Below, piece by piece: positions 1-33,120 of a stretch of DNA of 33,120 bases. The notes beneath the pieces were generated by a model. That model worked only from the letters and a program-made list of their open reading frames with translations. It had not been told where the DNA came from and ran no database searches. Origin of the DNA: a virus (taxonomy: Duplodnaviria; Caudoviricetes); the IMG/VR virus record IMGVR_UViG_3300012348_000069, positions 1 through 33,120 of that record. The stretch is one strand, 5' to 3'. Positions within the stretch are counted from its first letter, which is position 1, and the number at the start of each line of letters is the position of its first letter. The translations under genes and the position numbers were made by a program.

Positions 1-55
1 TAAAAAGTGGTGGAAATATAGAAGCTATTGAAAAAAAGTATAAATTAGCCAAAGC
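1..55 (+). repeat. 55-bp exact repeat of 31204..31258 (circularising overlap)
   Basis: Direct comparison; identity ends at base 56. Confidence 0.95.
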
Positions 56-86
56 AGTTAAAGACGAATTACTAAAAGTAAAATAA
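1..86 (+). CDS. 3' end of ERF recombinase gene (allele lacking the cassette array)
   Basis: Encodes KSGGNIEAIEKKYKLAKAVKDELLKVK*, the same C-terminus as 30711..31289; 4 synonymous differences after base 55. Confidence 0.9.
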   Translation, partial: KSGGNIEAIEKKYKLAKAVKDELLKVK

Positions 87-119
87 TTAAAACTGAATAG
101 CTGACAACAGGAAAAAAAG

Positions 120-174
120 GTAGGCAAAGTAAAAAACAAATATTATGAGTGCATTAATTAATGTAAGTTTAAGA
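120..174 (+). repeat. 55-bp exact repeat of 33066..33120 (contig end)
   Basis: gtaggcaaagtaaaaaacaaatattatgagtgcattaattaatgtaagtttaaga present at both positions. Confidence 0.95.
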
Positions 175-4354: not shown

Positions 4355-4609
4355 ATGGCTAAAAAGAAAATAGAAATCTACTCTCCACATTACACACAGG
4401 TAAATGCTATGGTGTATTGTGTTAAAAGAAACGTAGCTTATTCATTAGAAGCAAACACCAACAAAAGATTCTACATAGTTAAATACATTCCAAGTGATTA
4501 TAAAAATGTAATCTATTTGAAAGAGAATAATAAGAAGGTAGAGTTTAGCGAATACGAAGCAACAAAAAAGATTATGGAATTATATATTAACCAAAGTAAA
4601 TTATTATAA
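4355..4609 (+). CDS. Hypothetical protein
   Basis: 84-aa ORF in operon. Confidence 0.7.
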   Translation: MAKKKIEIYSPHYTQVNAMVYCVKRNVAYSLEANTNKRFYIVKYIPSDYKNVIYLKENNKKVEFSEYEATKKIMELYINQSKLL

Positions 4610-4612
4610 GAT

Positions 4613-4834
4613 ATGAAAGTAAAAGATACAATGTCAGAATGGATTGAAACACAAATTAAAGATAGTGTAGTGCAATCAGTAATTAATAAATTTAAACAAC
4701 GTAGTGAAGTAGGAATAAAGAAATACAATACTACATTAGACCGTGAAGATTTAACCGACAAAGAATGGATAAACCACGCACAAGAAGAAGCAATGGATTT
4801 AATTTTGTATTTAGAAAAACTTAAAAGACTATAG
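4613..4834 (+). CDS. Small all-alpha protein, possibly MazG/nucleotide pyrophosphohydrolase-like
   Basis: GIKKYNTTLDR...WINHAQEEAMDLILYLEK (EExxD). Confidence 0.55.
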   Translation: MKVKDTMSEWIETQIKDSVVQSVINKFKQRSEVGIKKYNTTLDREDLTDKEWINHAQEEAMDLILYLEKLKRL

Positions 4835-5266: not shown

Positions 5267-5456
5267 AGATGCAACAATAAAAATATTCAGTAAGATACAA
5301 TCTTTAGAACGTGACTTGCAATGGATATACCACGAATACTTCAACGCACAAATAAATGATGACCAATTTATGGCAATGATAGATTCAACTGAAAGAGATA
5401 TACAAACACACTATTACATTTACGACTTAATTATACAAGATGCAAGAAAAAATTAA
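5259..5456 (+). CDS. Hypothetical protein
   Basis: 65-aa ORF overlapping neighbours. Confidence 0.7.
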   Translation: MNEDATIKIFSKIQSLERDLQWIYHEYFNAQINDDQFMAMIDSTERDIQTHYYIYDLIIQDARKN

Positions 5457-5667
5457 AACACAAACAGCAGTTGAATGGTTGCAAAATCATTTAATAGTTC
5501 ATTTTTCAGAAATTGAACAACAAATTAGGTTTAAAGGTTTATTTGAAAAAGCTAAAGAAAATGAAAAGCAAAAGATTATTAATGCTTATGACTATGGAAG
5601 TATTGATGCTTTAAAAGGTAAATCAATATCAGGTAAACAATTTTATAAAAATAATTTTAAAGAATAA
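5440..5667 (+). CDS. TAVE-family small protein (copy 1)
   Basis: TAVEWL...FEKAKENEKQKIINAY...FYKNNFKE. Confidence 0.8.
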   Translation: MQEKIKTQTAVEWLQNHLIVHFSEIEQQIRFKGLFEKAKENEKQKIINAYDYGSIDALKGKSISGKQFYKNNFKE

Positions 5668-5670
5668 GAT

Positions 5671-6441
5671 ATGGACAAAATTAAAACATTCGATAACAAG
5701 ATTTGGGACAAACAAGAACTATTAGATAATATGTACGATGATGACTTCTATTATGGGTATTTAGGTAAACAAGCATTATCTTCATCAAGTCTAAAGATGG
5801 TGCTTAAATCACCTAAAACATATAAGTACGTTACAAAATACGGACAAGCAGAAACTCAACCATTAAGAGATGGTAAACTATTCCATACACTGATACTTGA
5901 ACCTAATAAGATAGATGACTTTACATTTGTAGATTGCAAAACTAAAGCAGCAAAAGAATACAAACTTGCAGTAGAAGAAAAACAAAACGTTTACACTACA
6001 AACGAATTAAGAGATGCTGAAAGATTAGCAGATGCAATACTAAAAAACAATGAAGCTAAAAGTTATTTTATGGGTGCAGAATTTGAAATACCTGAAGTAG
6101 CTATGATAGATGGAATACCATTTAGAGCCAAAGCAGATATTTTAAGAGGCAATCAAATAATAGACTTAAAAACTACTACAGGATTAAACGAATTTAGATA
6201 TTCAGCAGACAAATATAGTTATGACTTACAAGCTTATATGTACAAAGAAATGTTTGGAGTAGATGAATTCATATTTGTATGTATTGACAAAGGTAGTTTA
6301 GACATTGGAATCTTTGAATGTAGTGATGACTTTTATCAAAAAGGTAAAGACAAACTTGAACAAGGTATTGCAAATTACAAATACTTTTTTCAGAATGAAG
6401 CAGTAGATTTAAACCAATATGTATTAAGAGGAATATTATAA
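5671..6441 (+). CDS. PD-(D/E)XK exonuclease, RecE/exodeoxyribonuclease VIII-like (DUF3799 type)
   Basis: LSSSSLK, GKLFHTLILEP, KAD...IIDLKTT, YDLQAYMY. Confidence 0.85.
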   Translation: MDKIKTFDNKIWDKQELLDNMYDDDFYYGYLGKQALSSSSLKMVLKSPKTYKYVTKYGQAETQPLRDGKLFHTLILEPNKIDDFTFVDCKTKAAKEYKLAVEEKQNVYTTNELRDAERLADAILKNNEAKSYFMGAEFEIPEVAMIDGIPFRAKADILRGNQIIDLKTTTGLNEFRYSADKYSYDLQAYMYKEMFGVDEFIFVCIDKGSLDIGIFECSDDFYQKGKDKLEQGIANYKYFFQNEAVDLNQYVLRGIL

Positions 6442-17659: not shown

Positions 17660-17686
17660 AAGGGTAGTTTAATAGCTACCCTTTTT
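17660..17686. terminator. Intrinsic terminator between convergent genes
   Basis: aagggtagt-ttaata-gctaccctt plus T tract. Confidence 0.8.
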
Positions 17687-18263
17687 AATACTTATTTCTT
17701 TTTAAAATGTTATCTACTGCCCATAATGGCTGAAAATTAGTATAATGATTAAGTTGTATAACTTCTTCTTCTGTTGTCGCTAAAGAAATTGGTTTAATGT
17801 GGTCAAGATGCCATTTACCTTGATTATCCCAAGACATACCTTCTGTGAAGTTATTTTCTATGTAGTCTTTAAATTCTTCTATTGTACACCCTAATATGGA
17901 TTCTGATTTAGAATCTTTTCTAAATTGATTATTACCACGTTTAAAAGAATTACTAATTAAACTTCTTGTATTGCAAGTGAACTTAAATAGTGAATCAGTT
18001 TTTTTTCTATTTTTTAAATATTCTCTTGTTTTTTTCTTTATTTTTTCTTTGTTGTTTTCTCTATATTTAGAAAAATACTCTTTATTATTATTTCTATAAT
18101 TAGAACGATAATCCAATAAATTTTCTTTATTATTTACATAATATTTTTTAGCATATTCTCTATTGCAAAGTTTACATTTATATTGCAATCCATCTTTTTT
18201 ATTTTTGTCTTTTGAAAATTCATCAAAAGCTTTTTCAATTTTGCATCTTGTACATTTTTTCAT
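17685..18263 (-). CDS. HNH homing endonuclease (copy 2)
   Basis: CxxC..CxxC plus WHLDHIKP...LNHYTNFQPLWAVDN. Confidence 0.85.
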   Translation of the reverse strand: MKKCTRCKIEKAFDEFSKDKNKKDGLQYKCKLCNREYAKKYYVNNKENLLDYRSNYRNNNKEYFSKYRENNKEKIKKKTREYLKNRKKTDSLFKFTCNTRSLISNSFKRGNNQFRKDSKSESILGCTIEEFKDYIENNFTEGMSWDNQGKWHLDHIKPISLATTEEEVIQLNHYTNFQPLWAVDNILKRNKY

Positions 18264-19983: not shown

Positions 19984-20544
19984 ATGGCTTATATATATTG
20001 CACTACAAACCTAATAAATGGTAAAAAATACATTGGTTCAACTAATGGGTATTATCCTAATTATTTAGGTAGTGGAACATATATTAAAAAAGCAATAAAA
20101 AAATATGGTAAAGAAAATTTTACTAAAGAAATTTTAGTAGAAGTTCCTTATGAGTATAGATGGGAAGAAGAAAATTATTGGTTAAATTATTTTAATTGTG
20201 CTAATAATTCATTATTTTATAATGTAAATCCTCAAGCAGGTGGTTCTCAAAAACAAAAAGGATATAATTTATCAGAAAAACATAAATCTGCAATATCTAA
20301 AGGTAGTAAAGGTAAAAAAGTGAGTCACTATACCAAAGTAATTAAATCTAAATATCTTGTAAAAATAGATTCTACAGAATGGATTACAACGGGTGAATTG
20401 TCTTTGATTATGGGTTATAATAACAGAAGTTCTGTAACCACATTAATAAGGACTTTAGAAAAAGGCATATCAACAAAAAGAAAAACAGGTAGTAATGCTA
20501 TACATTTACTTGAATTAGGATTTGAATATAAAATTAACTTATAA
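19984..20544 (+). CDS. GIY-YIG homing endonuclease (Seg-like, NUMOD3-like motif)
   Basis: YIYCTTNLINGKKYIGS, YLGSG, KKYGKENFTKEIL, SEKHKSAIS. Confidence 0.9.
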   Translation: MAYIYCTTNLINGKKYIGSTNGYYPNYLGSGTYIKKAIKKYGKENFTKEILVEVPYEYRWEEENYWLNYFNCANNSLFYNVNPQAGGSQKQKGYNLSEKHKSAISKGSKGKKVSHYTKVIKSKYLVKIDSTEWITTGELSLIMGYNNRSSVTTLIRTLEKGISTKRKTGSNAIHLLELGFEYKINL

Positions 20545-21136: not shown

Positions 21137-21727
21137 TTAATATATACTTCCTTTTCTTAAATTATCAATAGCCCATAAAGGTTGAAAGTTTGTATAATGA
21201 TTAAGCTTAATAATTTCTTCTTCAGTAGTTGCTAATTTCAAAGGTTTAATATGGTCTAAATGCCATTCTCCGTGGTTTTCTATTGACATACCTTCTTTGA
21301 ATTTAGATTGTATATATATCCTAAATTCTTCTATAGTACATCCCAATATAGATTCAGTATTTTTTGTTTTATCAAAATTATTAATATTTCTTTTAAAAGA
21401 TTTTGAAATTATATTTCTTATATTATGATTAAAGTTAAATAATTTGTCTAATTTTCTCCTATTAAACATATATTCTTTATGATATTTTTTTCTATTTTCT
21501 TTATTGTTTTTTATATATTCTTTTTGCTTATTTATTAATTTTATTTTATTTAATTCATAATATTTCTTTGAATATTCTTTTTGATATTCTTTTATTTTTT
21601 CTCTATTTATTTCACAATATTTTTTATGACAATCTTTGCATTTTTCAGTTAATCCATTTTTACCTTTTTTACTTTTATAGAACATATCAAAAGATTTTTC
21701 TATTTTGCATTTATTACAAGTCTTCAT
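21137..21727 (-). CDS. HNH homing endonuclease (copy 3)
   Basis: CxxC..CxxC plus WHLDHIKP...LNHYTNFQPLWAIDN. Confidence 0.85.
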   Translation of the reverse strand: MKTCNKCKIEKSFDMFYKSKKGKNGLTEKCKDCHKKYCEINREKIKEYQKEYSKKYYELNKIKLINKQKEYIKNNKENRKKYHKEYMFNRRKLDKLFNFNHNIRNIISKSFKRNINNFDKTKNTESILGCTIEEFRIYIQSKFKEGMSIENHGEWHLDHIKPLKLATTEEEIIKLNHYTNFQPLWAIDNLRKGSIY

Positions 21728-30285: not shown

Positions 30286-30525
30286 ATGAAAGATAAAAAA
30301 TTAACTGCAGTAGAATTTATAGAAAAAGCATATAATGATATTTGTTTTAATAATATGACTTATGGAATAGGTATTAGTAAAGACTTTATTCCTAATTTAT
30401 TTAAACTTGCTAAAGAAATAGAAAAAGAAAATATTGGATATTTTGCAACTAAATGTTGTTTAATGACAATTCAAGAAAAAGATTGGAGTATGGAAGAATT
30501 TTATAACGAAACATTTAAGAAATAA
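30286..30525 (+). CDS. TAVE-family small protein (copy 3)
   Basis: TAVEFI...FKLAKEIEKENI...EEFYNETFKK. Confidence 0.8.
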   Translation: MKDKKLTAVEFIEKAYNDICFNNMTYGIGISKDFIPNLFKLAKEIEKENIGYFATKCCLMTIQEKDWSMEEFYNETFKK

Positions 30526-30528
30526 TAT

Positions 30529-30708
30529 ATGAAAGATTTAATCGACTTTAACAGATTTCAAATAGAAGCACTACAAGCGGAAATTTGCAAACTAAAACAG
30601 GAAAACAATTTACTATCTACATATTGCTTTGAAGCATTAGAAGAAGGAATTACACAAGAGTACAAAACATTAATCAAACAACAAATTTACCAATTAAAAC
30701 AAAATTAA
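30529..30708 (+). CDS. Small coiled-coil protein (59 aa, not in ORF track)
   Basis: MKDLIDFNRFQIEALQAEI...QLKQN*. Confidence 0.65.
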   Translation: MKDLIDFNRFQIEALQAEICKLKQENNLLSTYCFEALEEGITQEYKTLIKQQIYQLKQN

Positions 30709-30710
30709 TT

Positions 30711-31289
30711 ATGAAAGAGTTATCATTAAACGAAAAATTAAGCAGAATTCAAATTGAATTCAAAGCAAACAAGTCAAGGTTCAATAGCTTTGGAAAATAT
30801 AACTTTAGAAGTGCTGAAGATATATTAGAAGGTTTAAAACCATTCAACGAAAAGTATGGTGTATCTTTTACCATTACAGAAAGATTAATTAACGTAGGTT
30901 CAGATTTACCTATAATGGAATCTACTGCTACAGTATATGACAACAATGGAATTAATGAACTATCAGCTATTGCTATTGTAGGTGTAGACTTAAATCAAAA
31001 AGGAATGCAAGTGCCACAACAATTTGGTTCAGCTTCTTCTTATGCTAAAAAGTATGCTTTAGGTAACCTATTGTTAATTGACGACACACAAGATGCTGAT
31101 GCTGTAAACAAACACGATAGCGGTATCAAAATAGCTGATTTAGTTGACGATAAAAAATGGTTAAATAAAAATACACCTGAATTTACTAAATCAATTGAAT
31201 ACTTAAAAAGTGGTGGAAATATAGAAGCTATTGAAAAAAAGTATAAATTAGCCAAAGCCGTAAAAGACGAATTGTTAAAAGTAAAATAA
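30711..31289 (+). CDS. erf: ERF-family ssDNA-annealing recombinase
   Basis: FNSFGKYNFRSAEDIL, QQFGSASSYAKKYALGNLLLIDD.QDAD. Confidence 0.9.
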   Translation: MKELSLNEKLSRIQIEFKANKSRFNSFGKYNFRSAEDILEGLKPFNEKYGVSFTITERLINVGSDLPIMESTATVYDNNGINELSAIAIVGVDLNQKGMQVPQQFGSASSYAKKYALGNLLLIDDTQDADAVNKHDSGIKIADLVDDKKWLNKNTPEFTKSIEYLKSGGNIEAIEKKYKLAKAVKDELLKVK

Positions 31290-31296
31290 ATAAAAT

Positions 31297-32064
31297 ATGA
31301 GAAACATACACGTATTACCAACAGACAAACCAAGTAGACTAATTCAAGCTAAAAATGATATATTAATATTATTGATTGAATTAGCAGAGAACAATGAATT
31401 TAACCTCAATAAACACATCTACATCACTTCTGATGAAGAAATTAAATATGGTTATGCTTTTCACTTAAAAACACAAGAAGTTTTAAAAGTAAAAGGAGTT
31501 GGAGAAAAATCAAACGAAATATTCCACTCTAAAGGATTTAGTTATTCTGCTGAATGTAAAAAAATCATCCTAACAACAGACCAAGACTTAATCAAAGATG
31601 GTGTACAAGCTATTGATGATGGGTTTTTAGAATGGTTTATTAAGAATCCTAAAAGTGAGAATGTATATGTTTACAAAGAATATAAACAAGTAAACCAGAA
31701 TAATCCCGTTACAAGGGGAAGTACTGCATTAGCTTTCTCTCACTATGAAGTTCAATCGCTTGACCTTTCATCGCCAATAGGAACCAATGAAAAAGAAATT
31801 ATGGCAAATTTACCAAATGGTGATGATTTTTTCAAACAAGAAACACTTGAAGAAGCTATTAAACAAGAATTAGAAAATCATTTCTTTTCTAATATTTCAG
31901 AGATAAAACAAGCTGAATACTTTATAAATTTTGGTGCTAAATGGCAACAAGAACAAGACAAGAATAAGTTTAGTGAGGAAGAAGTTCTTGAATTATTAAT
32001 TAAATGTCCTTATGTACTTCCTACTGATATAAAAAATTGGTTTGAACAATTTAAAAAGAAATAA
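31297..32064 (+). CDS. Mosaic hypothetical protein (first cassette gene)
   Basis: NIHVLPTDKPSRL, HIYITSDEEIK, CKKIILTTDQDL, KQETLEEA..GAKWQQE, WFEQFKKK. Confidence 0.8.
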   Translation: MRNIHVLPTDKPSRLIQAKNDILILLIELAENNEFNLNKHIYITSDEEIKYGYAFHLKTQEVLKVKGVGEKSNEIFHSKGFSYSAECKKIILTTDQDLIKDGVQAIDDGFLEWFIKNPKSENVYVYKEYKQVNQNNPVTRGSTALAFSHYEVQSLDLSSPIGTNEKEIMANLPNGDDFFKQETLEEAIKQELENHFFSNISEIKQAEYFINFGAKWQQEQDKNKFSEEEVLELLIKCPYVLPTDIKNWFEQFKKK

Positions 32065-32067
32065 GAT

Positions 32068-32295
32068 ATGGCTAAAAAAATTATAAAAGAAAATAATTTA
32101 AATGTAATGTATAACCATACAGGAACTACAAGTTTTTCAGGTTGCCAATGTTTTAAGGATTGTTCTTGTAATGAAGATTTTAAACCAAATAATTATAATT
32201 ATTACACAGTTAAAAGAAAAAACAAAAAAACAACATTTCATCAAACTTTAGAAGAAGCTAATACAAGATGGGATTTTTTAAATAATTTAATATAA
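32068..32295 (+). CDS. Small Cys-containing hypothetical protein
   Basis: CQCFKDCSC motif. Confidence 0.7.
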   Translation: MAKKIIKENNLNVMYNHTGTTSFSGCQCFKDCSCNEDFKPNNYNYYTVKRKNKKTTFHQTLEEANTRWDFLNNLI

Positions 32296-32308
32296 AAATA
32301 AATATATT

Positions 32309-32458
32309 ATGGAAAAAGAAACAAGAGAGTTTGTCTATTGGTTAATGGATAACTGTGAATTAATTAAAGATGAAGAAACTGGAGAAAATGTACTTTGGAG
32401 GTATAAATCAGAAGATTATTCAGTTGATGGGTTATTTGAACAATTTAAAAACAAATAA
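32309..32458 (+). CDS. 49-aa hypothetical protein (not in ORF track)
   Basis: MEKETREFVYWL...LFEQFKNK*; ends in junction repeat. Confidence 0.7.
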   Translation: MEKETREFVYWLMDNCELIKDEETGENVLWRYKSEDYSVDGLFEQFKNK

Positions 32459-32461
32459 GAT

Positions 32462-32671
32462 ATGAAAACAGCAGTAGAATGGTTAAAGTATGAATTAGAT
32501 ACTGAATTAGAATTATATAATAGCCAATGGGATAAAATAAATAAAATTTTAGAACAAGCCAAAGAAATGGAAAAGCAACAGATAATTAATGCTTGGAATG
32601 ATGTAAAAATTTGTGATTCAGGATATAAAGACGCACAACAATACTATAACGAAACATTTAAAAACAAATAA
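32462..32671 (+). CDS. TAVE-family small protein (copy 4)
   Basis: TAVEWL...LEQAKEMEKQQIINAW...AQQYYNETFKNK. Confidence 0.8.
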   Translation: MKTAVEWLKYELDTELELYNSQWDKINKILEQAKEMEKQQIINAWNDVKICDSGYKDAQQYYNETFKNK

Positions 32672-32674
32672 GAT

Positions 32675-32830
32675 ATGTTAGACGAAATAAAAAAATGGTG
32701 GAATAGAAAATGGTCTAATTGGGAAATTGAAAGAGAGTATTTTAGTTGGGCTAATTTTACTACCTGTATAGTTCTAAAAAGAACTTCAAATGATGGGTTA
32801 ATTGAATTTAAAGAAGTTAAAAAGAAATAA
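32675..32830 (+). CDS. 51-aa Trp-rich hypothetical protein (not in ORF track)
   Basis: MLDEIKKWWNRKWSNW...EVKKK*; flanked by junction repeats. Confidence 0.7.
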   Translation: MLDEIKKWWNRKWSNWEIEREYFSWANFTTCIVLKRTSNDGLIEFKEVKKK

Positions 32831-32833
32831 GAT

Positions 32834-33040
32834 ATGAAAAAAATAACAAGGTCAGTAATTAAGTTATCAGAAATCCCTGAACACTTACAAAGGAACAAAA
32901 TATTTAACGGACATAAAACACATACTTATGCAGAATTTCATATAGATAATTATGAAGAAGATGATTTAAGTTTATGGTTAATTAGTAAATATCCAACAAT
33001 AAAAAGAAAAATAAGTTTTTTAATTCATATTGATAAATAA
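32834..33040 (+). CDS. Hypothetical protein (last cassette gene)
   Basis: 68-aa ORF starting in junction repeat. Confidence 0.7.
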   Translation: MKKITRSVIKLSEIPEHLQRNKIFNGHKTHTYAEFHIDNYEEDDLSLWLISKYPTIKRKISFLIHIDK

Positions 33041-33090
33041 ACAGGGTAGCCGAAAACTGAATAGAGTAGGCAAAGTAAAAAACAAATATT

Positions 33091-33120
33091 ATGAGTGCAT
33101 TAATTAATGTAAGTTTAAGA
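33091..33120 (+). CDS. 5' end of SSB gene (repeat of 145..174)
   Basis: MSALINVSLR, identical DNA. Confidence 0.9.
   Translation, partial: MSALINVSLR

Follow-up and report, generated by a model that had tools for sequence, protein, structure and literature searches.

The small genes between erf and ssb in this freshwater phage DNA are joined by a short repeat spanning the stop of one gene and the start of the next, here called the joint. We read it as an optional site of crossover, at which small accessory phage genes recombine through short homology, with a probability of roughly 0.6. How phages gain and reorder such genes without wrecking their operons is an old question, usually framed as illegitimate recombination plus selection versus boundary sequences. 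Here both routes could be roughly quantified in one phage group: about one fifth of the gene-precise indels were bounded by repeats and four fifths were not. The empty and filled alleles found in one contig, the measured share of repeat-using indels and a test of joint variants, or dialects, are what this analysis adds.

The window, that is, the whole stretch of DNA analysed, is an entire contig of 33,120 nt with 29% G+C. The 63 proteins scanned include terminase, portal, tail fibre, endolysin, NinG, ERF and a RecE-like exonuclease. The host is likely of the Flavobacterium type, because, among cultured phages, DNA resembling the array was found only in Flavobacterium phage elemo (68 records; 73% over 8% of the query), and the phages that trade joint-bearing small genes probably infect Flavobacteria. 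The window also carries three mutually related endonuclease VII/HNH-like genes (493-1095, 17685-18263 on the minus strand and 21137-21727 on the minus strand) and one GIY-YIG-like gene (19984-20544). The features relevant to the array are:

1-174 (+): empty allele, in which the 3' end of erf is followed by a different leader (58 nt) and the ssb start
5655-5673 (+): gapped joint-like end of a family A paralog, preceding the RecE-like exonuclease gene (5671-6441)
30513-30531 (+): gapped, joint-like 3' end of another family A paralog (30286-30525), which relatives lack
30711-31289 (+): ssDNA annealase of the ERF family, flanking the variable interval on the left (Pfam PF04404, E 4.9e-28; PHROG 155)
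31297-32064 (+): array gene 1, 255 aa, family B (large, mosaic and phage-borne), with the joint as its native 3' end
32051-32070 (+): joint 1, exact match
32068-32295 (+): array gene 2, 75 aa, lacking a 3' joint (phrog_34260, function unknown)
32309-32458 (+): array gene 3, 49 aa, its 3' end a 30-nt near-copy of the gene 1 end
32445-32464 (+): joint 2, exact match
32462-32671 (+): array gene 4, 69 aa, family A, with paralogs at 5440, 7561 and 30286 (mutual BLASTp)
32658-32677 (+): joint 3, exact match
32675-32830 (+): array gene 5, 51 aa, the entire joint-to-joint unit being present in locus L102 with other neighbours
32817-32836 (+): joint 4, exact match
32834-33040 (+): array gene 6, 68 aa, highly mobile and often the last gene before ssb
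33040-33072 (+): DUF805b RNA motif within the leader of ssb, located 3' of the insertion point (Rfam RF02914 at 39.5 bits, cut-off 35.6)
33092-33120 (+): right flank, where the ssb-like gene begins (complete copy at 145-438)

The six same-strand ORFs of the original prediction were confirmed between erf and the ssb-like gene. The gene on their right presumably is an ssb, a name given from its SSB-like acidic tail; it had no Pfam match, and its PHROGs match was a family of unknown function. Searches of Pfam, PHROGs and the Atlas placed the array cargo in no named family. Family B, to which gene 1 belongs and which likewise has no name, matched 105 of the 6461 genes of the collected loci, and family A matched 130 of them by BLASTp; the Atlas neighbours of gene 4 were hypothetical viral proteins only. 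Gene 1 is a patchwork in comparison with L017 and L018 (31290-32064), with DNA blocks of 91-93% between unalignable stretches, and one of its blocks reappears in an unrelated L018 gene; the DNA-level conservation of such inner blocks of families A and B was judged from BLAST blocks alone.

The joint, TTAAAAA[C/G]AAATAAGATATG, was present as an exact 20-mer at four of the five internal junctions, as originally claimed, and was absent from the fifth (32295/32309). In 100 shuffles of the window, exact copies averaged 0.00 and copies with 2 mismatches or fewer averaged 0.04. The predicted pairwise matches were also confirmed, the copies sharing 20-30 nt, ATG included, with at most one mismatch. 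The three degenerate copies proposed elsewhere fared unequally: those at 5655-5673 and 30513-30531 are gapped versions at the ends of paralogs of the gene at 32462, while that at 4605-4615 is weak and has only the last 9 nt in common. Sigma70-like sites were not in excess within the array (13 versus 21.6 expected, in a scan that does not cover promoters of the Bacteroidota type), nor was any terminator-like site found there.

The array is an optional allele at the erf-ssb site. Among 113 distinct erf-ssb intervals, the filled allele of the window included, 69 were empty (<100 nt) and 44 were filled. Fifteen fills contained at least two ORFs, those with a single ORF being left out of joint scoring, and six of them showed at least one joint with no more than one mismatch: the window and five relatives (L017, L018, L361, L382 and L436). 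The joint-bearing fills of the relatives contained other genes. Gene number and content do vary at this site, as had been foreseen. The fill of L018 starts and ends with the same gene families as that of the window, contains four other genes in between and has a joint at 5/5 internal junctions. L447, 93% like L018, lacks two L018 genes and the break falls inside a joint. The joint follows the erf stop directly in L361 and L382. In L013, L021, L066 and L072 the interval is filled by single, similar-looking endonuclease-like ORFs.

Both alleles are present in the window, because the start of the contig repeats the end of erf (positions 1-92, 95%) and runs into the ssb start without the array. 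The last 55 nt of the contig, up to position 33,120, are repeated exactly at 120-174, which suggests a circular assembly emitting both alleles of a mixed population; the contig is probably a strain composite of empty (1-174) and filled (31204-33120) alleles. Empty alleles also occurred as contig joins in runs X3 and X4, and contig 19 of run X3 skips the family A paralog at 30286-30525. We considered the empty allele of the window as the pre-insertion site of the filled one and rejected it since the ssb leaders differ. Exchange of the array as a unit would proceed more simply through the flanking erf and ssb homology. In run X1, near-exact unitigs covered 31557-32646, whereas the erf and gene 6-ssb flanks were only about 88-90% alike; these unphased data hint at a recent transfer of the middle block of the array, and X1 may be the source sample. 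Runs X2-X4 showed small word shares only and were not used to deduce the habitat.

Since every array seen comes from assemblies, since the unitigs of run X1 break at joints and since the contig itself joins two alleles, the apparent shuffling might be mis-assembly of metagenome contigs at the repeat. We regard this as extremely unlikely: the 55-nt terminal overlap, which would reflect the assembler word size, exceeds the length of the joint (20-30 nt), the shared joint-flanked units are 86-99% alike and not identical, and the order joint, 67-aa gene, joint, gene 6 and ssb was recovered in the separate assemblies L018 and L447.

The joint is the native, usual 3' end of families A and B, two amplified families, and it is also present after many unrelated genes. 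An unsupervised ranking of junction 13-mers over 2227 protein-selected junctions placed the joint and two other sequences at the top as the leading families, and these are the three dialects. One of them formed the 3' end of 41 of 55 genes in families A and B and of 122 of 2100 other genes. Of 389 joints, 276 followed genes without a BLAST match to either family, a count that may overlook diverged members. Six upstream and six downstream families are connected by yet another recurrent junction sequence, the fourth, which is unrelated to the three dialects. In the 34 loci with at least two dialect junctions, 86 of 96 pairs were of the same dialect (permutation mean 36, maximum 52 in 2000) and 28 loci were pure, although these loci are related by descent and not independent. 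This purity could come from host-partitioned gene pools. Homologs of gene 6 carry different 3' tails attached at a few common bases, and by eye these tails mostly match the dialect of the locus. If it survives phylogenetic control, the dialect pattern would amount to a sequence-level rule for gene flow among phages.

The joint is conserved as DNA. A Lys/Asn-rich C-terminus that is itself functional, the DNA repeat only mirroring it, would account for the in-frame register being the commonest among the 389 joints (spacer of 3 in 168, of 13 in 38 and of -4 in 9). We find this highly improbable, because the joint also lies out of frame or fully outside the upstream gene (spacers of 13, 14 and -4; L361 and L382), its codons are more constrained than the protein requires and conservation extends to the three non-coding bases that precede the ATG. 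In the protein-selected loci, Asn was written with its minor codon in 31 of 37 cases at the terminus, compared with 21 of 71 internally. Nor is the joint a general core-gene start context. According to the accessible text of a study on F. johnsoniae, adenines at -12 and -13 are positive determinants of initiation and A is optimal at -3 and -6 (PMC6847099). When tested against these four positions and core-gene use, the joint conforms at -12/-13 only and has G at -3 and T at -6. It precedes 111 of 2364 ORFs shorter than 100 aa, a class that includes spurious calls, 26 of 1157 of 100-199 aa and none of the 441 of at least 200 aa. Equal use at core-gene junctions, which had been named as a case against the original prediction, is therefore not what we observed, although ERF homologs were preceded by the joint in 7 contexts.

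Joint-to-joint units do recur beside different neighbours, in line with the predicted portability. Gene pairs flanked by the joint on both sides in both loci differed in both neighbours in 13 of 16 cases belonging to 8 families, the pair L087/L162 not being counted as switched on both sides; the loci are phylogenetically non-independent and the motif-selected ones inflate such joint-joint pairs. Gene 5 and its L102 counterpart are 88.5% identical from joint to joint and the identity is lost on both sides, and a 30-aa gene of L102 and L018 differs in one coding base and has new neighbours on both sides. These two aligned pairs and the L447/L018 comparison bear out the claim that breakpoints fall in the repeat, whereas as a general rule it did not hold, given that the joint bounds only a small minority of indels. 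Among 108 gene-precise indels between related loci, 19 were bounded by a junction repeat scoring at least 14 and 89 were not; the null gave a mean of 2.9 and a maximum of 7 in 300 runs, a 6.5-fold excess. The joint itself was found at both ends of 5 of the 108, compared with 1.6 in the null, and 2 of 300 null runs reached 5. Most indels had few bases in common around the ATG (median score 7). At many loci, most gene gains and losses break exactly at the start codon in this way.

Such figures suit an alternative in which the joint is a passenger, namely the tail of abundant paralogs together with a workable start context that travels with the gene in front of it, while genes move by illegitimate or ATG-centred microhomology events and selection keeps the products with a stop and a leader. 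Besides the low median score, it is favoured by the adenines at -12/-13, by the joints before ERF homologs and by two cultured Elemovirus isolates, in which a one-gene indel (L229 1449-1745 versus L230) is bounded by a different start-site repeat of 11 nt. Against it stand the non-optimal bases at -3 and -6 and the absence of joints before genes of at least 200 aa. Moreover, on its own it predicts neither one dialect per locus while the same gene has different tails elsewhere, nor the excess of repeat-bounded indels. This alternative explains most exchange in these phages and explains the repeat excess and the dialect purity less well; as an account of the joint we consider it rather unlikely. 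Where both copies had the joint, 29 of 37 families showed a switched upstream neighbour; the figures were 31 of 35 with the joint in one copy and 91 of 261 with it in neither. As the second rate matches the first, genes associated with joints are mobile whether or not a partner joint is present, and joints may in part simply label genes that move often. The joint was present in every context in only 19 of 211 mobile small-gene families. Gene 6 was found in 113 contexts, with 67 upstream families among the 82 that had a close neighbour and the joint upstream in 25. A dedicated integron-like cassette system is not borne out by these numbers, the joint being neither required nor the main exchange route.

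The exact joint 20-mer occurs in an estimated 240 or so IMG/VR stretches, on contigs of up to 322 kb. Within the genomes of the GTDB collection it was present in 21 stretches, nearly always as a single copy, and at least three copies were found only in a 7-kb Flavobacterium MAG contig and in one 26-kb MAG contig; 16 single bacterial-genome loci were excluded from the gene sets. The two MAG contigs (L228 and L221-L223), with three and five joints, are labelled Pseudomonadota (26% G+C) and Flavobacterium sp., and are possibly phage contigs binned with bacteria. Distinct arrays with at least three joints within 3 kb numbered 56, and erf was located in the flanking DNA examined of 11 of them, a count inflated by ERF-selected loci. 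The remaining 45 showed no erf in those flanks, and hence the link to an adjacent ERF made in the original prediction is weak and adjacency to ERF was rejected as a defining part of arrays. Proteins near arrays matched the recombinase families ERF (7), RecT (1) and Rad52 (1), which is an association only.

A dedicated site-specific recombinase acting in trans, encoded elsewhere in the genome or by the host, would make the arrays a true integron analogue. The boundaries are precise and repeated, the joints are clustered (one joint was followed by another at the next junction in 18 of 50 cases, compared with 27 of 758 otherwise) and the dialects resemble enzyme-site specificity. Even so, such an enzyme is very unlikely. 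No integrase was identified among the 63 window proteins, and no integrase or resolvase among 192 of the 195 proteins (150-900 aa) in the examined flanks of 55 arrays, the three outside this count being ERF homologs. The joints form no hairpin (8 folds of four joints on both strands, z -1.26 to +0.34). The absence of integrase and attC that had been anticipated was thus confirmed within this scope. In addition, the spacer before the ATG and the length of the common sequence vary, and the exact motif is so sparse in the GTDB collection.

Our preferred reading of the joint as an optional crossover point can be laid out as a succession of steps. An unrelated gene would first gain the tail through a rare microhomology event at its 3' end. 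A crossover within two joints could then insert, delete or replace whole genes, and the operon would survive the exchange because the product always keeps the stop, the A-rich leader and the ATG. As crossovers need matching joints, an array would stay with one dialect. The catalyst would probably be an annealase of the phage, here the ERF protein acting with the RecE-like exonuclease, as the shared 20-30 nt are near the minimal pairing of Red-beta (23-27 bp) and below that of RecA (31-34 bp), values quoted in the accessible part of PMC3945230. Finally, the whole array could travel between strains through the erf and ssb flanks. In this scheme we infer the catalyst, the tail capture and a translational coupling at the joint. 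A broader proposal is that Bacteroidota phages run a self-assembling integrase-free cassette system, in which the 3' ends of amplified gene families act as stop-start adaptors, any gene capturing such an adaptor enters a shared plug-in pool and the dialect is a compatibility code that sets which phage lineages can exchange accessory genes; we offer it tentatively, as possible though doubtful.

Integrons are same-strand arrays of single-gene cassettes with IntI, attI and attC hairpins. Joint arrays are similar in their same-strand, single-gene units that appear in new orders, and differ from them in that neither IntI nor the attC hairpin was found, the site extends into coding sequence and the joint need not be used. 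The PeSLs of the T4-type phages RB49 and phi1 are closer in one respect. In the accessible text of Arbiol et al. 2010 (PMC2839356), these repeated boundary elements flank ORFans in hyperplastic regions and their copies recombine to delete, insert or replace genes without an integrase, mini-circles being shown. The joint resembles them in such integrase-free shuffling, with gain or loss bounded by two repeat copies. However, PeSLs are described there as intergenic elements of about 100 bp with a promoter and a stem-loop, whereas the joint is only 20-30 nt long, overlaps coding ends, supplies the stop and the start, has no stem-loop and is known from assembled contigs, in which neither a circle nor a read showing a crossover was seen. 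By the features tested, joint arrays belong to neither integrons nor PeSLs.

The boundary sequences of mosaic phages also invite comparison. The accessible part of Pope et al. 2011 (PMC3029335) reports short border homology proposed as crossover points, most borders being without it, and 29-bp repeats on either side of LRRHood genes 43-46. Here too, mosaic borders carried short conserved DNA more often than expected by chance, and most borders lack the repeat in both cases. Unlike those sequences, the joint is one sequence in well over a hundred unrelated small-gene families on contigs of 30-320 kb, derives from the tail of a gene family and comes in locus-specific dialects. Relaxed recombination of the Rad52-like kind (Red-beta, RecT, Erf) is the likely catalyst; in the accessible portion of De Paepe et al. 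2014 (PMC3945230), Erf/Exo of phage D3 was as efficient as Red on diverged DNA, with substrates of 800 bp. We found no description of the joint in the literature, where our coverage of subscription papers was thin, and the accessible part of bioRxiv 10.1101/2023.04.06.535777 contains nothing on junction repeats. The 20-30 nt element and the cultured pair Elemovirus and Flavobacterium sp. BAL314 make the repeat route testable; one core joint copy was present in the 18 kb of Elemovirus examined.

The leader of ssb is a possible cis-regulatory RNA for this gene. A literature search for the DUF805b motif gave no result, and the leader of the empty allele, also present in L003, L008 and L011, had no Rfam match at E values up to 1. 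The leader occurs in several conserved versions (window 33040-33072 and 88-128; the erf-ssb spacers of L001-L080), and the one at the window start and in those three loci has short blocks in common with the DUF805b version.
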